Source: Candidatus Saccharimonadota bacterium
GTDB lineage: Bacteria > Patescibacteriota > Gracilibacteria > UBA1369 > 2-02-FULL-48-14
Assembly (NCBI GenBank): GCA_965230905.1
Contig: OZ246396.1
Location: 60,001 to 92,000 of the forward strand
Length of the DNA: 32,000 nt
Direction of reading: 5' to 3'
A model generated the notes under the pieces. It was not told the origin of the DNA. It ran no database searches and saw only the letters and a list, made by a program, of their open reading frames with translations. A program made the translations under genes and the position numbers. Each line of letters begins with the position of its first letter. Within the stretch, counting starts at the first letter, position 1. Positions 7,735-30,005 of this stretch are shown here, piece by piece.

Positions 7735-7779
7735 TTAGCTTATACTTTACTTGTAAACGGTAAGACCTGTTAGTGGTTC

Positions 7780-8072
7780 CTAGGTGTTCCCTTCCATCGG
7801 TTGGCCACAGCTTAGGGCATTCGAGCTAACAGGCTCGTTTTCGTTTAGATGCAGACCCTGCTCTGTTGTGATGTGTTTACGAAATAGCTTGTACCATTCA
7901 AGGTCGTTCTTTTCATGTTTCCTGAAAATGCCCCATGCAAATAGGTCAGCAGCTTGAAGTTCAAAGTAAAGGCCTCCAGTTCGCTTTTCAACGCTAAAAC
8001 TTCAGCGTAGCATTTCGTTCGTAACGTTTTGACATTGTTTGTGGATTTTGCGTATATGGATATAATCAACAC
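7780..8072 (-). pseudogene. possible frameshifted gene remnant
   Basis: Two overlapping minus-strand frames together span the gap. One is the 75-codon TTG-start ORF 7845..8072. The other is a start-less open frame 8001..7780 (…GLYFELQAADLFAWGIFRKHEKNDLEWYKLFRKHITTEQGLHLNENEPV…), which reads like real protein but contains no ATG/GTG/TTG until near its 3' end. No family recognised. Confidence 0.25.
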
Positions 8073-8089
8073 TTACTAAGATAAACAAT

Positions 8090-8833
8090 ATGACACTACA
8101 ACTTAGAGAAATGTGGGTAAGGGGCGAAACAACACCGCTTCCTTGCAGAGGATATCTTCACGCAAAGGCACTTGAAAATATTCTGACAATTACAGGAAAA
8201 TCTGCAAGAAAAGCTATGATGAAACCTGGTCCATTTGATGAAGATGAATTTCGAACAACACTAGAAAAACGCTTCATAGAACAGAACGAGGCACACAAAG
8301 GGGCGAGTTGTAATGCAGCACTGGATTCTTTATCGGCTGAAGATCTTAAAAGTTTGTGGGGCATGGAAAGTAGTGGAGGAATGCCTGGCGTGGCTTTTGC
8401 TGATAGAAAATTGTTTTTATGGGCAGATACTTGCCCAGTAACATCGGAGGAACGTAGAAATTTATGTTATAACGAATTAGGGGAACAAGAATCAGACATA
8501 TGGTATCCCGGTTCTTTTGGAAATGCTGATTCTTTAGCTAAATCTTGGGGAGTTAGTCTGTTAAGACCTCAAGTTCGTCATGAAATGCAAGGAAAGTTTC
8601 CTTTAGAAACAGATGGAAGCTTAGTTTGGTTAAATACTCGTGATGCAATTCTTCGTGAAGGTAGAGCATTTAGATCACACATTGCTGGAGTAGACAGATC
8701 GGATTATTCTATACGTAATCACACAGATTATTGGGGGTTTAGAACTGAAAAATTAGTAGCCAATAAATTTCCAGCAAAACAATCTTTATTTGCCAGCTTT
8801 ATGGAGGGTTTCAGTGGCGGACAATTTGACTAG
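8090..8833 (+). CDS. DUF4256-like protein (island gene C) with an N-terminal extension
   Basis: The stretch LEKRFIEQNEAHKG … LWGMESSGGMPGVAF … FLWADTCPVTSEERRNLCYN … LVWLNT … YWGFRTEKLV follows the order of conserved blocks I recall for DUF4256 (ME.TGGEPDVV, F.DCSAESP.GRR..CYD, SW..T, GFRGSLKV). It also aligns with 18802..19434. Confidence 0.7.
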   Translation: MTLQLREMWVRGETTPLPCRGYLHAKALENILTITGKSARKAMMKPGPFDEDEFRTTLEKRFIEQNEAHKGASCNAALDSLSAEDLKSLWGMESSGGMPGVAFADRKLFLWADTCPVTSEERRNLCYNELGEQESDIWYPGSFGNADSLAKSWGVSLLRPQVRHEMQGKFPLETDGSLVWLNTRDAILREGRAFRSHIAGVDRSDYSIRNHTDYWGFRTEKLVANKFPAKQSLFASFMEGFSGGQFD

Positions 8834-9904: not shown

Positions 9905-11564
9905 ACCAACCCCCAATTTTGCTTGCCCAGCCTTTCACTGCAGCCGTAGCTTTTTGTGTGAAGGATGGCTCAGGTGCGGGCGCCACTTTAGGTGCAGGAG
10001 CGATGACCGGTGCCTTTGCTACTTGAATAGCATGTGCTTCAGGAATATCTACTACGCTCGCGAGGCCCATTTGTGCAGGAGTGCTGATTGGAAGAACCTC
10101 TTCTTCAACGAGGTAGTCGGTCAAATCTTCATCCTCATCTAGGGCAAGTTCTTCATCTTCCACGACGGATGTGGATGCAAAGTTCATAGGTTCTGGAGCG
10201 TCGTAAACGTTGCTTTGTTCAGGCACGAATTCAACGAGAACGGGTGTAGGCTGAGTGAGGTCTGTTGCGGTTCCAAGATTCATTGGCTCTGGTGCGTCGT
10301 AGAGGCTTGCAGATTGAGCGCTTGGGTACTGGAAGTGAGCCGGTGAAGGCGGAGGTGTAGCTACGAAGCTAGCAACCGTTTCTTTGACTTGTTCTGGAGT
10401 GATCTTTGCGAGCTCGGCTTCAGCTTGAGCTGGATCTTCTGCGATGCGTGAATCTTTAATGAGGGCGATTTGTTTAGCCAGCGCTAAAGCGGTTTGGTCG
10501 GAATTGTTTGGATCGTCTACTGAGTCGAGATTTTCGTCTGAAGCAATATGTGCCAAAGCATCATCGAGGTTTGTGATGGGCGTAGGTGAAGCATCAAGGC
10601 TGGCTAAAACTGCATCGTATCCACGCCACTTTTCTAGTTTTTCAACTACTAAATCCAGGGCGAGTTTGCTATCTCTCCAAGGGCTGCCCAAATCTTGATA
10701 AGAGTTGGCATCTGCATAGAGTCCGCTCACGAGTTCATTGGTAGCAGCGGCTGTGAGACGAGTATCTTTTGAGGGCATTTGAACTTCCACTTTTCCATAG
10801 AGCGTGGTGGGTTCAACTGGAGAAGCTTCACAAGGAGTTTCTTCCTCGACGCATTCTCCATCCTCTGGCAACGACGCGAGGTAAGCAAGCTCTGCGTCAT
10901 TAGGCCCTTCACACACACGAGAATCGTCCATTTCTTGAGGGCGGTTTGCATAGAATGCTGCACCTAAGGCTCCACCAGCTAGCAAAGCACCCATTGCAGC
11001 AAAAATTTTCGAGCGATGATTGTTTAGAAAACCTGTAGATAGAGATTTACCTTCAACAAGCTTAACTGGTTCAAATGCTGGCGCAGAGGCTGGTTTTACA
11101 CCAGGTTTTGTGGGCTCATCGGCATCCCAGTCAGCTGTGTCAGCCTTTTTCGTTTGAGGCAGTGGAGCTGGCGATAAAAAATCAGGATCTATTGAGTTTG
11201 GATTGAAATCAGGAAAGTAGGTTTTAATTGCGCTGAGCAAAGAGTCCCTTCTATGTGCTGGCGTGTCGGCTGGCAAGCCTAAATACACTTCAATCAACCC
11301 TTTTCCGCTTAAGTTTGTAAACGCTTTCCCTCTTTCTGTAACGCTCAAAGGGTCAGCCCCACCTTGACCAAACCCATGATACAAAAACTTTACCCCCTTG
11401 GCTTCAGCTTCATGATTAGGCTCTTCTGAGATGTCTACCCTGATTCTAGCAGATCCTTCATCATCCTTAAACTCTTCTGAGTCGTCTACTAGGACTCCAG
11501 CGGTTTCTTCATCGATTCCACTTGTATCATAGGATTTTTGGACTGTAGAAGAAAGTTTCATCAT
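9897..11564 (-). CDS. hypothetical acidic single-pass membrane protein
   Basis: 555-codon ATG ORF with one central hydrophobic helix (IFAAMGALLAGGALGAAFYA). The very acidic C-terminal half carries a duplicated YDAPEPMN motif and an Ala/Pro-rich tail (APVIAPAPKVAPAPEP). Its TAG stop overlaps gene D by 8 bp in convergent orientation. Confidence 0.7.
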   Translation of the reverse strand: MMKLSSTVQKSYDTSGIDEETAGVLVDDSEEFKDDEGSARIRVDISEEPNHEAEAKGVKFLYHGFGQGGADPLSVTERGKAFTNLSGKGLIEVYLGLPADTPAHRRDSLLSAIKTYFPDFNPNSIDPDFLSPAPLPQTKKADTADWDADEPTKPGVKPASAPAFEPVKLVEGKSLSTGFLNNHRSKIFAAMGALLAGGALGAAFYANRPQEMDDSRVCEGPNDAELAYLASLPEDGECVEEETPCEASPVEPTTLYGKVEVQMPSKDTRLTAAATNELVSGLYADANSYQDLGSPWRDSKLALDLVVEKLEKWRGYDAVLASLDASPTPITNLDDALAHIASDENLDSVDDPNNSDQTALALAKQIALIKDSRIAEDPAQAEAELAKITPEQVKETVASFVATPPPSPAHFQYPSAQSASLYDAPEPMNLGTATDLTQPTPVLVEFVPEQSNVYDAPEPMNFASTSVVEDEELALDEDEDLTDYLVEEEVLPISTPAQMGLASVVDIPEAHAIQVAKAPVIAPAPKVAPAPEPSFTQKATAAVKGWASKIGGWFK

Positions 11565-11614
11565 TTATGATTAAGATGGATGCGGATTATAAAACTTAAA
11601 TGTGCCTATGTCAA

Positions 11615-14600
11615 CTACAAAGCTGTGCACCACTCGCATTCGCCACAGGCGGTGAACTCGTCGACATCGAGAAAACGGAGATTTTGGATGTCGTCGTAGA
11701 CGGATTTGATCTGGGTGCGGAGGTCGGCGAGCTCTTCGGGGGTCGGGTAAATGGGCTTGCGTATATAATCGCCTGTTTTGCTCTTTTGCACAAAGTCTAT
11801 TTCGCCGCTGACCATGGTGTAGGGGAATTTTTTGGAGTTGTCGCAGAGGAGCTTGTAGAAAAGGATCTGACGGCGGTACTCCCCTTGCGGACCGAATTCG
11901 GACTTTTTGTTGTCGGGCATGCCGGTTTTGTAATCCACCACATGCACCGACCGGTCGGCTTCGTCCTTGAGTTCGATCTTGTCGAGTTTTCCGGTGATGG
12001 GCACTCCATCCACATTCACGCCATGGGAGCGGAAGTCGTATTCAACCAGAACATCGGGGCGGAAAGTGTCGCGGTAATGATCGTAGTAATCGGCCAGGGT
12101 GCGTTTGCCGAGGTCGAGGCCGCCACGAAAATCTTGCAGGGAGAGGATTTCGCGTTGGAGGTGTTTTTCAAACTGATCGAGCACGGTTTCTTTGGCGGGT
12201 GTGCTGCCTTCGCGGACTCCTACGTAGAGGTCTTTGAGGGCTTCGTGAACAGCGGTTCCAAAAGCGAGGGATTTGGACTTGGCTCGCGGCACGCGCAGCA
12301 CATTGTTGTAGTAAAAAAGTCGCGGACAGCGGAGGTAGTTATTGAGGTGGGTCACGCTCATGGTGTAGTTCTGCAGGAGGCTCGCGATGTAGGCGCGGTG
12401 GTCTTCGGTGAGGCTGGGCTTGGGGACTAGGAAGAGCGTTTGTAGATGTTCGAGAGCTTCTTGTTCAAGGTAAGTGGTTTCCAAGTTTTGCTTCAACGAG
12501 TCGTCTATTTCGCTTAGGAACATGGAAGGAACGGTCGGTCGGCCTTGATCGTTTTCTTTGGGATACGTGAGGGTAACGGATTTTTTTGCACGGGTGATGG
12601 CCACAAAAAATAGTCGGCGTTCTTCTTCATTTTTCTCATGTGGCTGCGTGACTTTGAGCAGCGTAGCGGGCAGCTTGAGTTTGGCGTGGTCGGGCGCGTT
12701 GCCCCAGTGGCGGTCGACGGCGTTCATTATAAAGACGTGCTCGTACTCGAGCCCCTTGGAGCGGTGCGCGGTCATGAGGCAGACGGCGTCTTTGTTGGTG
12801 ACGAGTTCCTGCGCGGGCAGACTGAGACCGTTTTCTTTGAGCAGGTCGAGGTAAGCGATGAAATTCGTGAGCGTCATGCCAGGGTTGGCGCGGTTCCACT
12901 GTTTGAGTTCGGCGAAAAGACTGTTGAGGCGATTGAGTTCTTCGAGCTGATTTTCTTGCGCGAGGATGCGCGTGAGGTAGCCGCTGTCCTGGATTAGCAG
13001 ATCGAAAAATTCAATGAGTGGACGGTTGATGCTTTCTTTATGCCAGCTCATGAGCTTGTCCGCAAAGTCGCTGAAGGCGGGGTTTGCTTTCATGGCTTCG
13101 AGGAAGCTTTTTCGGTGGGCCTCGCGGGTGAGCTTGGCGATGCTGAGCGAATCGAAATCCCAAAAGTCGTAATGCAGAATGGTGAAGAGATGCGATTCGT
13201 CTTCGGGGTCAGCGAGGTAGCGTAGAAGGTTGAGGAGTTTTTGAACGCTTTTGTCATTGAGGAGATCCTGGCCGGCGGAAAGATGGAAAGGAATCTTCAT
13301 GCGTAGGAAAAGTTCCACCAGGCCTTCGGCTTCGCGGTTGCTGCGGTAGAGAATCGCAATTTCAGAGGGCTTGGTGCCGTCGGCGAGGAGACGCTGGATT
13401 TCTTTGGCCAGGAAATAACGCTGCGAGTCAGCGTTGTCGAGTTCCGCGACGCGGATGGGCTGCGCGGGGTGCGGCACGTTGGAGTGCAGCGCTTCGAATT
13501 TTTCGTCGAGGAATTGAGCGAGGTTTTGTTCACTGTGGGCGATGAGCGACTGCGCCGCATCAAGCACGGTTTGCTGGCTGCGGTAGTTCTCGCGGAGCGT
13601 AACCACTTGCACGGTTTTTTTGTAGAGCTGGTAGAAGTAGAGCAGGTTTTCGAGCGAGGCGCCCTGAAAGCGGTAAATGGATTGCTTGTCGTCCCCCACC
13701 ACGAAGATGTTTGGGTTTTCAAAAAACTCGCCGAGGAGGCGAACCACCTCGTTTTGAGCACTGTTGGTGTCTTGGTATTCGTCCACCAGAATGTATTGGA
13801 ATTGCTCTTGGTAACGGGCACGGAGTTCTGGATTTTGCTTCAGTTTTTCCGTCACAAAACTGATCATATCTTCAAAGTCGTAACGGCCGCGGCTGCGCAG
13901 CATGTCTTGGTAGTTTTTGTAGATTCCGCAGAGGGCGAGTTGTTTGGGAATTTCGCGCTGCCATTCTTCAAACGCATCCTTGAGGGCGCTCTTCATTACG
14001 GTGCGATTTTTTTTGTCGTCGGTGTCTCCGTCCAAATAGGCCGCGAAGGGCGTGCCAGTGAGTTCAGTTTTTATTCTTTCGAAATCGGCGGCGGCGAGCT
14101 GGTTGGCGTGTGTGCTGACGAAGGCCGTTATGGTTTCGGCGTAGCTGGCGATGAGCGCCTCCCCTTCTTGAACCACGGCTTGCAGTCGCTCGGGCGATGC
14201 GTTTTCACGTTTCAAATCTTGAATGGCCTTAGTGATGTCTTTCAAATAAAAATAGGGACTGCCAAAGGGACGGAGCGGCGTGTTTTCGCCGAGTTGGTCG
14301 AGCAGTTCGCGGAAAAACTGAATCCGCTCCACTTCGGTGAGGGCGCTGAGCTCACGGGCGAAGAGAAACTCCGTCGGGTAATCCTGAATCACTTCATTAC
14401 AGAAAGAATGGAAGGTGTGGATGCGCACGCCGTACGCGGTTTCGCCAATAAAACTGAGCAGACGTTTACGCATGGCCACGGCGCCGGATTCGGTAAAAGT
14501 GAGGCAGAGAATGTTGTGCGGCGCGGCTTGGGTTTTTCGTAAAATTTGCGCGATGCGCAGGGCTATCATTTGCGTCTTCCCCGTCCCGGGACCCGCCAAA

Positions 14601-18801: not shown

Positions 18802-19434
18802 CTAGACCTCTAGCGAGCAGCGGAATCCATAAGCCAGACTGTGATCGAACGCATGAGCGTTGCGGGAAAAGCCAAGGTGCCCATACTTCGCGTATCTAGT
18901 TTTTGGAACTTTTTTGGTGGTTCGAAGCCAGCTGAAAGTGTGTTCGTCGAGCATAATCCCTTTGGATCTGAACGTGTCATAGACCGAAGGCTCCATGAGT
19001 TCGGCACCGAGTTGAGCGGCAAGGACTTCAGCCTCATAAAAATTGACATTACGGTGAGCAATTGGTGCCTCGGCGGAAAGGTCATCGAAACGGAAATTGC
19101 CGTTTGAGAGTTTGGCGGTCACCGTGAGCTCTCCGTGCTCGATGAGGCGACCCAGGATGGTGAGTTTCTCAGGAGATTTTTTGAGCTTAGCTTCGACTTC
19201 GGCCCACTTGATCCCGGTTTGAAGTTTAGCTTCTTTGGCTTCAAAATTGGCTTGGAGCGTTGAGATCGTCTGAAGATCTTCGGGGGAAAGCTGCGTTTGG
19301 CCTTCAAAGGAGGCTAGCAGTGCCTGGAGAGCAAGATTTTCTGGCCTCCCTCGTTCAAAAGCTGCTGCAGGTTCGCCAGCACTATCAGGAGAGCCGTTGA
19401 AATGATCTGAGTTGGTTTCGGTTGATTTTGTCAC
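18802..19434 (-). CDS. DUF4256-like protein
   Basis: GTG-start ORF of 210 codons, preceded on the minus strand by TGgTATAAT. The blocks KWAEVEAKLKKSPEKL, FRFDDLSAEAPIAHRNVNFYE, HTFSWLRTT and the C-terminal YGFRCSLEV match my recollection of DUF4256 and align with 8090..8833. Confidence 0.75.
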   Translation of the reverse strand: MTKSTETNSDHFNGSPDSAGEPAAAFERGRPENLALQALLASFEGQTQLSPEDLQTISTLQANFEAKEAKLQTGIKWAEVEAKLKKSPEKLTILGRLIEHGELTVTAKLSNGNFRFDDLSAEAPIAHRNVNFYEAEVLAAQLGAELMEPSVYDTFRSKGIMLDEHTFSWLRTTKKVPKTRYAKYGHLGFSRNAHAFDHSLAYGFRCSLEV

Positions 19435-21275: not shown

Positions 21276-24351
<3,076 letters not shown>

Positions 24352-26745: not shown

Positions 26746-27216
26746 ATGGATCCAGTCACGCCCATTGCCGGAACTCCACAAGACCCTCAAGCAGGGGCTG
26801 CTGCTGCGCAAAGCGGCGCTAAGGATGATAAGTTCAAGATCCCTGCAGCAGTTTTGGCGAAGTACCCAGAATTGGTGGCTTTGATTAAGAAAACTGAATC
26901 CATGTCGGACGAGGAACGCGAATATTGGTTCCAGATTTTGCCGATCATGACCGCGGACCAAGTCACCCGCCTGAAGACCATTTTGGAAGAAGAGGCCAAC
27001 CAGTTGTCTAAACTCGACACGCAGTACCAAGATGAACTTGGTAAGCTCAACAAAAAACATTTGGAGGAATGGAATGTGTTCCAACAGAAACAAGATCGCC
27101 AGGCGCTTAAGGCTGAAGAAGCCAGCCACGAAGCGGTGGAAGCCAAGGCTGAAGAAGACATTTTGAAGAATCTGGATGACACTAGCACGCCTCCTCCGGC
27201 TGCTCCCCAAGCCTAG
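26746..27216 (+). CDS. hypothetical protein with a helical module paralogous to the C-terminus of 3524..4252
   Basis: 156-codon ATG ORF. FKIPAAVL … SMSDEEREYWFQILPIMTADQVTRLKTILEEEANQLSKL … KKHLEEW aligns with IKLPAHSL … SLTKDEKKKIIDSIPKLRQEQVDELIRIFDEERSKFVEL … DEHAADW. Confidence 0.7.
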   Translation: MDPVTPIAGTPQDPQAGAAAAQSGAKDDKFKIPAAVLAKYPELVALIKKTESMSDEEREYWFQILPIMTADQVTRLKTILEEEANQLSKLDTQYQDELGKLNKKHLEEWNVFQQKQDRQALKAEEASHEAVEAKAEEDILKNLDDTSTPPPAAPQA

Positions 27217-27221
27217 GAAAT

Positions 27222-27460
27222 CACGTTTCCCTTCCCCTGTTTAGTTCTCTGGGTGGATTTCTTCAACGGGAGCGAAAGCACTCGGATCATGATCCTCGTC
27301 CTTTCTTCCTTTTAGTTTATGTTTCATAAATCCGCCCAGAGAACCACGGAAAGGGAAACTGAAATTCTAAACAGAAGAAGGCTGCTTGGAGAGATTCAGC
27401 ATAAAGGCTCCCGCTGAATCGAACCAAGACAGGCTTCTGTATTTCTGTTTAGAATTTCAG
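27222..27460. repeat. two adjacent long imperfect hairpins (candidate structured RNA, bidirectional terminator or MITE-like element)
   Basis: Hairpin 1: 27225-27233 pairs with 27351-27359 (9 bp), and 27244-27260 pairs with 27328-27344 (17 bp including one G-U). Its 67-nt loop contains the perfect palindrome GGATCATGATCC (27284-27295). Hairpin 2: 27359-27376 pairs with 27443-27460 (18 bp, perfect). Inner helices are GAAGGCTG/CAGGCTTC, CTTGG/CCAAG and GATTCAG/CTGAATC. TTTTT follows on the plus strand. Confidence 0.7.
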
Positions 27461-28353
27461 TTTTTCACCAACTCAGCCGTAACCACCAGGCGTTTTAAAG
27501 CGGTGCCCACCGGCGTGCAGGTCATGAGGGTGAGCGTTTTGGCGGCGCCTTGTTTCAAGATGCTCACATCGCTGGGGCTGACTTCCTTTTTAGAGGTCAC
27601 GCGGTAGTGGTATTCCTTTTGGTTGTTAGTGATGTAGATGTCGGCGCCCACCTCAATATCGGGCAGCAGGGCGAACACGGTGTTGTAGAGACTGGGCTCC
27701 CAGAGCACGTTGGAGCTGTGACCGGTGTAGAAGGCGTTTCCAATCTTTCCGGGTTCGGCGGTTCCAGGGTAGTGCACCACTCCACTCAAGAGGCTGCTTT
27801 GTATCTGTTTTTCCAAAGTGTTCCAGTCCTTGGCTTGCAAGGAGTCGAGGCCGAGTTGAGGTTCCACCACTTGAGCGTTGATCTTAAGCGAGGGCACGCG
27901 GATGCGGTCGTCGTAGGTGGTGGGCAGTAAGCTGAGGCCCAGGAGTTGATCCTGCATGGGAGCGGCTGGGAGTAGAGCCAGGGCTTCTTCGGGAGCTTTT
28001 TCAGGAATAGCGGCGCCGGTCCAAGGGTCGGTTTGTAGGCTGGCGAGGTGAAGCGGCGTTAAGTTCGCTTCCTGTTCCAATTGAGCGTGTTGAATGCTGG
28101 CGGAAATGATTTTTGTGTAAGCGGGCGCGTTGGTGAGGCTGAAGAGAATCAGGTAAATCACTGCGGCCGTGGCGGCAAAACGTTTTACTCCGCCGAAACG
28201 AGAAAAGGCCGGCAATTGGAGCAAAGCGGCTTCATGCGCGGAGAGGTCCAGACGCAGGTAAGACTCTTCTTCCAAAGCAAGAATTTTACGGTCTACCTGG
28301 AAGGCCAGGCGGGACACGAGCGACGAGAAGGGTGCCTTACGTGAATTCATCAA
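27457..28353 (-). CDS. sortase-family transpeptidase
   Basis: N-terminal membrane anchor (AATAAVIYLILFSL). Catalytic His in FYTGHSS, Cys in TLTLMTCTP (TLxTC) and Arg in LKRLVVTAEL. Confidence 0.85.
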   Translation of the reverse strand: MMNSRKAPFSSLVSRLAFQVDRKILALEEESYLRLDLSAHEAALLQLPAFSRFGGVKRFAATAAVIYLILFSLTNAPAYTKIISASIQHAQLEQEANLTPLHLASLQTDPWTGAAIPEKAPEEALALLPAAPMQDQLLGLSLLPTTYDDRIRVPSLKINAQVVEPQLGLDSLQAKDWNTLEKQIQSSLLSGVVHYPGTAEPGKIGNAFYTGHSSNVLWEPSLYNTVFALLPDIEVGADIYITNNQKEYHYRVTSKKEVSPSDVSILKQGAAKTLTLMTCTPVGTALKRLVVTAELVKN

Positions 28354-28388: not shown

Positions 28389-28805
28389 TTATGGCTCAGA
28401 TTGCACGGGCATGGAATCTGCCACTAGTTCCTTAATTTTTGCTACGAGGTCTTTTATATGAAAAGGCATTCCCAGAAAATGAATGTTTTCCCCTGCCAAC
28501 TCTCCTTCCACCGTAGAACTGATTAAACTCTTTGGGCTCATGGTTGTTAAAATTACAATAGGCGTGGTGAGCTGATGCTTTATTTTAAGATCATTTAACT
28601 CGTGAACCGGATTTTCTTCACAATGCACCACTATGCATGCCGGTTTCAAAAGCTCATCCGCAATGAGGTACCTTAAGGCTGCCATCGATCGGTGCACCCC
28701 TGTGTCCCATTCCAGATCCTGGTCTTTGAAGTAATCAGGCAACTCATCGGCAAATAACTCCGCCAAGGGTTCATAACTTTCAATAAAAAGGATCGTCTTA
28801 TTCAA
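28389..28805 (-). CDS. receiver-like (CheY-fold) protein lacking phospho-acceptor residues
   Basis: The layout matches a response-regulator receiver: ILFIES for ILIVDD, ACIVVHCEEN at the phospho-Asp strand, PIVILTT, and LGMPFHIKDLVAKIKEL for KPF..eL. The acidic pair, the acceptor Asp and the conserved Lys are all substituted. Confidence 0.55.
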   Translation of the reverse strand: MNKTILFIESYEPLAELFADELPDYFKDQDLEWDTGVHRSMAALRYLIADELLKPACIVVHCEENPVHELNDLKIKHQLTTPIVILTTMSPKSLISSTVEGELAGENIHFLGMPFHIKDLVAKIKELVADSMPVQSEP

Positions 28806-29945: not shown

Positions 29946-30005
29946 AAAATTCTTGCTCTGAGAGCTTGGTCAATATAAAATGAGATATTAGACTAGTCAA
30001 CTGCC

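Follow-up and report, generated by a model that had tools for sequence, protein, structure and literature searches.

Two long hairpins between convergent genes of a Patescibacteria genome: probable insertion of small palindromic elements at overlapping stop codons

Genomes of Patescibacteria (Candidate Phyla Radiation, CPR) are very small and tightly packed, and convergent genes in the one considered here, from a Candidatus Saccharimonadota bacterium in a groundwater metagenome of Hainich (Germany), normally overlap. Why does a 32,000-nt stretch of its contig OZ246396.1 (positions 60,001 to 92,000; hereafter the window) hold 240 nt of noncoding DNA between the convergent genes for a conserved hypothetical protein of 156 amino acids (aa) and a sortase? 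An initial annotation, made from the sequence alone, had seen two back-to-back long hairpins in this gap and had left three candidates unranked: a structured small RNA, a bidirectional terminator, and insertions resembling miniature inverted-repeat transposable elements (MITEs). Our analysis favors the last, excludes a known RNA and makes a purpose-built bidirectional terminator unlikely. We estimate a probability of about 60% that the hairpins, termed H1 and H2, are two small, non-autonomous palindromic insertion elements (MITE/ERIC/Correia-like) that inserted where two stop codons overlapped; effects on termination or via RNase III would be incidental. This reading is favored because the region is absent in close relatives, unrelated hairpin inserts occupy the same junction in other genomes, related hairpin families lie at other loci, and the apex of H1 occurs in one of these families (family B).

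The gap contains no called gene and no complete open reading frame (ORF); a single ORF of at least 40 aa starts there (27386-27607, + strand) and continues antisense into the sortase gene. Such a stretch is exceptional in this genome, as had been proposed: other convergent pairs overlap by 17 nt (Mur-ligase-like/ligA, window 22327-22343) and by 26 nt (relA/ychF, contig L001 15254-15279), and thus leave no space for an intergenic terminator. The two hairpins also hold up against shuffled controls on either strand. For 27210-27475, the minimum free energy (MFE) of the + strand is -110.3 kcal/mol, compared to -65.6 +/- 4.9 for shuffled sequences (z = -9.2; none of 200 shuffles as good), and that of the - strand is -115.3 kcal/mol (z = -9.1). 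When the whole window was folded in sliding segments of 120 nt, the hairpins supplied the top three outliers (GC-corrected z of -6.0, -5.4, and -3.5), with nothing beyond z = -3.3 in the remainder. That both strands fold alike is expected of a DNA palindrome; strand asymmetry of the whole region was accordingly dropped as a sign of an RNA gene.

Within this overall structure, several details of the first description required adjustment (Table 1). The boundaries of H1 were drawn from its inverted-repeat ends and a flanking AAAT direct repeat. The 9-bp and 17-bp helices ascribed to it are present, as is the perfect palindrome GGATCATGATCC in its interior; the suggested GAAA tetraloop is not, since, although GCGAAAGC exists, GAAAG is paired to CTTTC in the MFE structure as well as in the alignment with relatives. 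The sequences CACGTTTCCC and CAGTTTCCC, assigned to the outer ends of the whole region, are instead the two ends of H1. For H2, the basal helix is perfect, as claimed, but measures 21 bp rather than 18 bp; the MFE structure has 44 pairs in total (not about 38) and a 12-nt apical loop (not 14). The 3' arm does span the sortase stop codon, and a TTTTT run does follow H2, but its first three T's lie inside that arm. As to the supposed kinship between the arms of the two hairpins, CTGTTTAG does occur three times, but two of these occurrences are merely the two arms of H2. Local alignment of H1 with H2 gives a z of about 3, under the best shuffle and hence within chance; homology between them was rejected.

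The same junction in other genomes identifies the gap as an addition. The 240-nt spacer is missing from all seven of the closest relatives (75-87% aa identity in the 156-aa protein), whose two genes overlap or are separated by 8 nt at most. At 78 further metagenome loci the genes likewise form a conserved convergent pair. Gap lengths, from about 60 further relatives, lie mostly between -26 and +70 nt, the commonest state being -4, with a shared CTAG or TTAA. Given its absence in seven of seven closest relatives and the short gaps elsewhere, the 240-nt spacer is a lineage-specific insertion. As the relatives' genes overlap or nearly touch, the spacer is not needed for expression of the 156-aa and sortase genes. 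Both genes in the window terminate at the aligned residue where their orthologues terminate, the orthologous sortases doing so with TAG or TAA. Recoding of UGA (genetic code 25), whereby the sortase would read into H2, was ruled out: code 11 leaves the long conserved genes intact, and the sortase stops at the residue where its orthologues stop.

Long inserts at this junction are nonetheless found in other genomes (Table 1), i.e., at loci L228, L265, and L261, the excess of structure over shuffles being much weaker in the last. Apart from a short module at the H1 apex that recurs in L228, their sequences are unrelated to the window insert. The insert of L265 has a REP/BIME-type appearance (see below): its repeated palindromic units of ~25 nt (GGAGCNGNGTTGCANCNCNGCTCC-like) are accompanied by hairpins on the flanks and by a 103-nt direct repeat in two copies (91% identity).

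How the present arrangement could have arisen from a shared stop codon can be traced backward. The empty site would have read GCCTAG/TTTTTCACC (the slash marking the insertion point), with CTAG common to both stop codons, as in L015, L221, and L229. H2 (~98 nt, with a 16-nt perfect terminal inverted repeat, GAAATTCTAAACAGAA) would have been inserted first, its last two bases becoming part of the sortase stop codon; H1 would then have entered the left end of H2, duplicating AAAT. The inverted repeat of H1 runs from 27222 (CACGTTTCCC) to 27361 (GGGAAACTG), with AAAT on either side. Deletion of H1 and one AAAT (27222-27365) restores the 16-nt perfect terminal repeat of H2, which then lies between ...GCCTAG and AGTTTTTCACC..., and deletion of H2 with one AG yields GCCTAGTTTTTCACC, in which CTAG holds both stops, as in the three loci just named and others. 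This reconstruction fits two successive insertions, the order of which, like the AAAT and AG duplications, we infer; the duplications are too short to serve as proof, with the AAAT repeat being only suggestive at a chance of about 1/256 per register. Both elements have the size and lack of coding expected of MITEs (H1 ~140 nt, H2 ~100 nt), as well as terminal inverted repeats: CA(C)GTTTCCCTTYCC at both ends of H1, and in H2 a perfect repeat of 21 nt, or 16 nt with H1 taken out. Once in place, the insertion would leave the mRNAs of both the 156-aa gene and the sortase gene ending in very long stem-loops, H2 with its U5 could terminate the three-gene + strand cluster, and the 21-bp perfect duplex of H2 would be a substrate for the RNase III encoded by the same genome.

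Evidence that hairpins of this kind move comes from two families shared by genomes whose adjacent conserved protein is only ~55% identical (aa). Over ~170 nt, hairpin B of L228 shows 73% identity to an element located between mnmA and relA in L226 (= L299), and hairpin A of L228 has a match in a nested hairpin that L299 carries between its sortase and mnmA genes (z = 5.1; 0/500 shuffles). The mnmA-relA spacer of L299 measures 398 nt, compared to 26-133 nt in 24 relatives, and comprises two back-to-back long hairpins (12821-13218; z = -11.7); an Rfam scan of the L299 hairpins gave no family match. The presence of family A and B homologues in different spacers of divergent genomes means that such hairpins move. 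Homologous copies at non-homologous sites, a mark of MITEs, are thus on record for families A and B, with H1 sharing only its ~50-nt apex with B, and not for H2. A fixed unit of two hairpins, i.e., a module-bearing hairpin and its partner, was rejected, as families A and B occupy separate spacers in L299 and the partner hairpins cannot be aligned. From these comparisons, the long-hairpin elements of the clade appear to be independent units that insert at varied intergenic sites and tend to pile up side by side. The sortase-mnmA spacer of L299 (11496-11705) is likewise filled by hairpins, with 21-bp perfect arms at 11595-11674, and contains a solo family-B terminal sequence (11541-11564; 88% identical to 12970-12993).

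The link between the window and family B is a module of ~50 nt at the tip of H1, also present at the tips of the family-B elements of L299 (12897-12951, + strand) and L228 (865-915, - strand), two distant relatives where its site or its orientation differs. Across these three members, the blocks ACGGGAGCG, GAT(G)CATGATC, and CTTCC(W)(W)TTA(R) are invariant, the family-B counterpart of the GGATCATGATCC palindrome being GGATGCATGATCC or AGATGCATGATCT. The helix between the blocks shows compensatory changes (GAAAG:CTTTC in H1, GTTTTG:CAAAAC in L299, and GTTTTATTAAA:TTTAATAAAAC in L228). In the module alignment, from whose own three members the structure was derived, pairing extends to 95.8% of cells, with 7 of 16 pairs altered on both sides, a result never equaled by shuffles or slid registers. 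Helix P2 has a closing G.U pair at each end (inner pair in 3/3 members, outer pair in 2/3), and the covariance model R1 scores 58-70 bits on the module strand (GGGAGCG), compared to 22 bits for the reverse complement. A search with R1 of 343 kb of relatives' DNA returned the three members and no more; in 439 kb from relatives, the motif combination has just three independent occurrences, all at hairpin tips, and in 1.5 Mb of unrelated loci it has none. The chance expectation of properly spaced GGAGCG, GAT(N)CATGATC, and CTTCC is roughly 1e-4 or less. On these grounds, we assign the H1 apex to family B, from whose outer arms those of H1 are unrelated. The recurrence of this tip elsewhere most likely marks small mobile "junk" DNA rather than a dedicated RNA gene.

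Several observations weigh against the view that H1 and H2 are mobile palindromic elements. (i) No second copy of either was found in 44 kb of the 1,307,106-bp source contig (the window, L001, and L327; up to 3 mismatches, plus short-word BLAST in the window), which rules out very high copy number only; nor does any comparable hairpin occur elsewhere in these 44 kb. (ii) H2 is without a relative in any collection or locus searched. (iii) The candidate duplications (AAAT at H1, AG at H2) are short, such that chance is possible. (iv) No autonomous partner element is known; a Pfam scan of the main window ORFs revealed no transposase, and neither did the precomputed Pfam hits for L001, L327, and L299. 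(v) A conserved apex on differing arms is the opposite of what transposase-recognized terminal repeats would show, and would fit a functional RNA or a single-stranded DNA hairpin. (vi) The conserved G.U pairs at the ends of P2 favor one strand.

Wider searches recovered no further copies. In Rfam (release 15), the gap region has no match at the gathering threshold; up to E = 10 there are only chance matches to miRNA, snoRNA, and lncRNA families, far below threshold. Among GTDB species representatives, a collection that does not include the source genome, the 17-mer of the H1 arm gave 98 chance singletons, none extending past the seed. In IMG/VR, the H2 16-mer gave 105 chance matches and the H1 17-mer gave 1, while two module patterns gave 1 and 24 matches, none of which scores with R1. 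A two-arm H2 pattern had 0 matches in JGI/ENA metagenome contigs (the source genome not being in that collection), and blastn against plasmid and phage collections returned no match. Concatenated six-frame peptides of the insert, aimed at copies miscalled as genes, matched nothing at E <= 10 among 5.8e9 protein clusters.

Assembly and strain data also bear on the hairpins. Three contigs end within H1, two Logan contigs (L002 and L003) exactly at 27297 and an ENA contig (L006) at 27304; as these positions are mid-hairpin rather than at an element edge, and uninformative on copy number, the breaks were dropped as evidence of a repeat. A Logan contig of the L299 genome (L301; its end corresponding to L299 11632) breaks within the nested hairpin, and long hairpins may break short-read assemblies in these genomes. 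Two strain contigs (L005, 1619 nt; L006, 722 nt) differ from the window only within H1 (at 27279, 27315, 27320, and 27322) and nowhere in ~2 kb of flanking coding DNA; they come from other Hainich samples at 1-3x coverage, and sequencing error at the hairpin is possible.

The conserved apex invites the main rival explanation, in which the H1 module is a new functional structured RNA (a 3'-untranslated-region or leader element, or a small RNA) that the outer stems merely present, and which acts via its palindromic CAUG/GCAUG loop, either by binding protein or by loop-loop dimerization. We find this doubtful. It would account for the retention of the blocks ACGGGAGCG, GAT(G)CATGATC, and CTTCC in three divergent genomes around a covarying helix, for the G.U pairs at the ends of P2, and for the better fold on the GGGAGCG strand; transcription of that strand from a flanking gene is possible at each of the three loci, and the strain polymorphism at 27315 (G to A) mirrors the R variation of the TTTAR loop. 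The sample nevertheless consists of three members from which the structure itself was taken, and their contexts vary, being twice just downstream of the nearer convergent gene and once in a divergent promoter region. Absence from all close relatives makes the module dispensable, the two family-B elements (L228B and L299-B') align over their full ~170 nt in the manner of repeats, and there is no Rfam match, nor did a scan find a promoter or terminator belonging to the module. A related proposal, to be taken as tentative and on balance improbable, joins structure to mobility: in Patescibacteria of the Peregrinibacteria/Gracilibacteria type, the ~50-nt module (ACGGGAGCG - covarying helix - GGAU(G)CAUGAUCC - helix - CUUCCUWUUAR, its G.U pairs being conserved) may be the functional core of a structured nucleic-acid element not yet described. 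Presented on interchangeable long stems, this element would spread between divergent lineages, whether as a mobile structured RNA or as the hairpin that a single-strand-specific mobilization enzyme recognizes.

That the spacer was instead selected as a bidirectional terminator or insulator separating convergent transcription units strikes us as decidedly unlikely. Its tail-to-tail position would suit this role, the more distant relatives with gaps of 40-70 nt (L227, L251, and L274) carry canonical hairpin-plus-T-run terminators at this very junction, and H2 with its T5 run resembles a terminator on the + strand. The T5 run is, however, ancestral sortase coding sequence, which lends H2 this look; the corresponding position of L013 reads TTAGTTTTCC. 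Close relatives and other convergent pairs of the genome overlap without any terminator, and the stems of 38-49 pairs with large interiors are far beyond terminator size. Whereas intrinsic terminators have about 5-14 pairs and loops of 3-8 nt, H2 has 44 pairs, a 12-nt loop, and a T-run that overlaps its helix and is coding; a consensus terminator scan called neither hairpin, and by reading of the sequence neither is followed by a proper U-tract on the - strand. Moreover, both strands fold equally well, and the H1 apex also occurs in the promoter-side spacer of L299. Of still lower probability in our judgment is that the hairpins are recognition structures in single-stranded DNA, i.e., the ends of an IS200/IS605-like or other HUH/Y1-mobilized mini-element, or the remnant of a single-strand origin or oriT, with the apical palindrome as binding or nicking site. 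The strand preference (here as G.T wobble pairs), the elements that adjoin or nest in one another, and the want of a convincing target-site duplication would agree with this, as would the conserved apex on variable stems, an arrangement also known from ssoA-type origins. Opposing it, TnpA, Rep, and relaxase genes were absent among window ORFs scanned against Pfam and among the precomputed hits for L001, L327, and L299, blastn found no plasmid or phage similarity, and IS200/IS605 end hairpins are several times shorter than H1 and H2. We give very little credence to growth of the spacer in place by local inverted duplication (template switching), without mobility and with the likeness of the H1 apex to family B convergent or due to chance. 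In its favor, ancestral sortase coding sequence is the pairing partner in the outer 5-7 bp of the H2 helix (AAACTGA/TCAGTTT), there is a loose resemblance between the left (AAATCACGTTTCCC) and right (AATTTCAGTTTTTC) junctions, and no other copy of the insert is known; yet the insert has no source elsewhere in the window or in neighboring loci, the three-block motif is improbable by chance at its spacing and is confined to hairpin tips, and homologous hairpins at differing loci in other genomes indicate mobility.

Comparison with known repeats places the inserted-element reading in context. ERIC/IRU repeats of Enterobacteriaceae are intergenic imperfect palindromes of about 127 bp that vary in presence between related genomes, occur in either orientation, have a conserved central inverted-repeat core, and exist in larger versions via internal insertions. 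The present elements are also noncoding, intergenic imperfect palindromes (about 100-150 nt) whose presence varies between relatives, and they have in common with ERIC the occurrence in either orientation, the conserved central core, and enlargement by internal insertion. They differ in having no sequence similarity to ERIC and a Patescibacteria host lineage, and the H1/B module family counts three members so far. Among bacterial MITEs, the Correia elements (CREE/NEMIS) of Neisseria and others (RUP, Nezha) give transcripts that fold into long hairpins, are RNase III substrates, and can terminate transcription, and they share with the present elements a size of 100-160 bp, terminal inverted repeats, lack of an ORF, and insertion close to gene ends. 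Correia elements, however, have conserved 26-bp terminal repeats, a TA duplication, and hundreds of copies, whereas the termini of H1 and family B differ and the candidate duplications are AAAT and AG. Repetitive extragenic palindromes (REP/BIME/REPIN) are similar in that palindromic units gather in intergenic regions, especially convergent ones, and the 379-nt insert of L265 resembles such an array. REPs are 20-40 nt long with a conserved GTAG head and a cognate RAYT transposase; membership of H1 and H2 was rejected, with units of 100-140 nt, no repeated short unit in the region, and no RAYT seen in the DNA read. Integron attC sites were likewise discarded: TCTAAAC and GTTTAGA violate the RYYYAAC and GTTRRRY boxes, the base of H2 is a perfect 21-bp helix without an unpaired spacer, and there is no cassette array.

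Table 1. Positions of the hairpin elements and neighboring features (window coordinates unless a locus is named), and states of the 156-aa gene/sortase junction in other genomes
Feature	Position	Strand	Remarks
Whole noncoding insertion	27217-27456	.	240 nt separating the convergent 156-aa gene and sortase gene
Hairpin element H1	27222-27361	+	~140 nt; terminal inverted repeats CA(C)GTTTCCCTTYCC; helices 27225-27233/27351-27359 (9 bp) and 27244-27260/27328-27344 (17 bp)
H1 apical module	27266-27315	+	ACGGGAGCG - covarying helix - GGAT CATG ATCC - helix - CTTCCTTTTAG
Perfect 12-nt palindrome GGATCATGATCC	27284-27295	.	Tip of H1
AAAT, left copy	27218-27221	.	Possible 4-nt target-site duplication of H1; read from sequence
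AAAT, right copy	27362-27365	.	Possible target-site duplication of H1; read from sequence
Hairpin element H2	27356-27463	.	~100 nt; perfect 21-bp basal helix 27356-27376/27443-27463; MFE 44 pairs in total; 12-nt apical loop
T5 run after H2	27461-27465	+	First three T's within H2 arm; ancestral sortase coding (codons K, N on - strand)
156-aa conserved hypothetical gene	26746-27216	+	Left neighbor of the gap
Sortase gene	27457-28353	-	Right neighbor; Pfam PF04203, E 7e-25
Sortase stop codon TGA (TCA on + strand)	27457-27459	-	Created at right junction of the insertion, within 3' arm of H2
RNase III gene (PF00636 + dsrm)	L327 2063-2764	-	Same genome, about 24 kb upstream of window start region
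Junction in L007, L008/9, L014			156-aa gene/sortase overlap 26 nt
Junction in L010/11, L015/16			156-aa gene/sortase overlap 4 nt
Junction in L013 (closest relative)			156-aa gene and sortase 8 nt apart
Junction in L228			265-nt gap; -108.7 vs shuffles -55.3 kcal/mol; two back-to-back hairpins
Junction in L265	522-902		379-nt gap; -181.7 vs shuffles -87.5 kcal/mol; array of short palindromes
Junction in L261			256-nt gap; -95.7 vs shuffles -78.1 kcal/mol; long hairpin

Beyond the junction itself, the 156-aa protein has 122 homologues, every one of them in Patescibacteria, Gracilibacteria, or Peregrinibacteria-type metagenome-assembled genomes. The sortase-mnmA interval of the window holds a 138-aa ORF (28389-28805, - strand) without a Pfam match, called as a gene in contig L004 and not in L001; a 150-aa gene occupies its position in relatives (L007, L015). 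The divergent mnmA-relA spacer (~60 nt, window 29946-30005) is strongly conserved across relatives (CTTGC...TATAAAAT...TTAGTCAAC), homologous spacers being found in L008, L015, L221, L223, and L299 (13160-13218), and is presumably the relA promoter and leader; in L299, it is left intact beside the hairpin insertion. Elsewhere in the window, an Rfam match to DUF3800-V RNA (7751-7844, + strand; 49.9 bits, gathering threshold 37.4) lies upstream of a DUF4256-domain gene (8090-8833), not of a DUF3800 gene, and a second DUF4256 gene is located at 18802-19434 (- strand).

Palindromic elements of this type appear not to have been described previously in Patescibacteria: a full-text literature search returned nothing describing MITEs or small palindromic mobile repeats in this group, and the palindrome strings occurred only in unrelated contexts, e.g., primers. 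The odd noncoding gap is explained here without a new RNA gene, and the comparison supplies a recognizable motif and a covariance model with which more such elements can be found. Should a function as RNA or as single-stranded DNA be proven for the conserved apex, the module would define a new family of structured elements specific to an uncultured phylum. If H1 and H2 are instead mobile repeats, as we favor, then even streamlined genomes would carry and exchange selfish noncoding DNA, for which tail-to-tail gene junctions would serve as safe landing pads.

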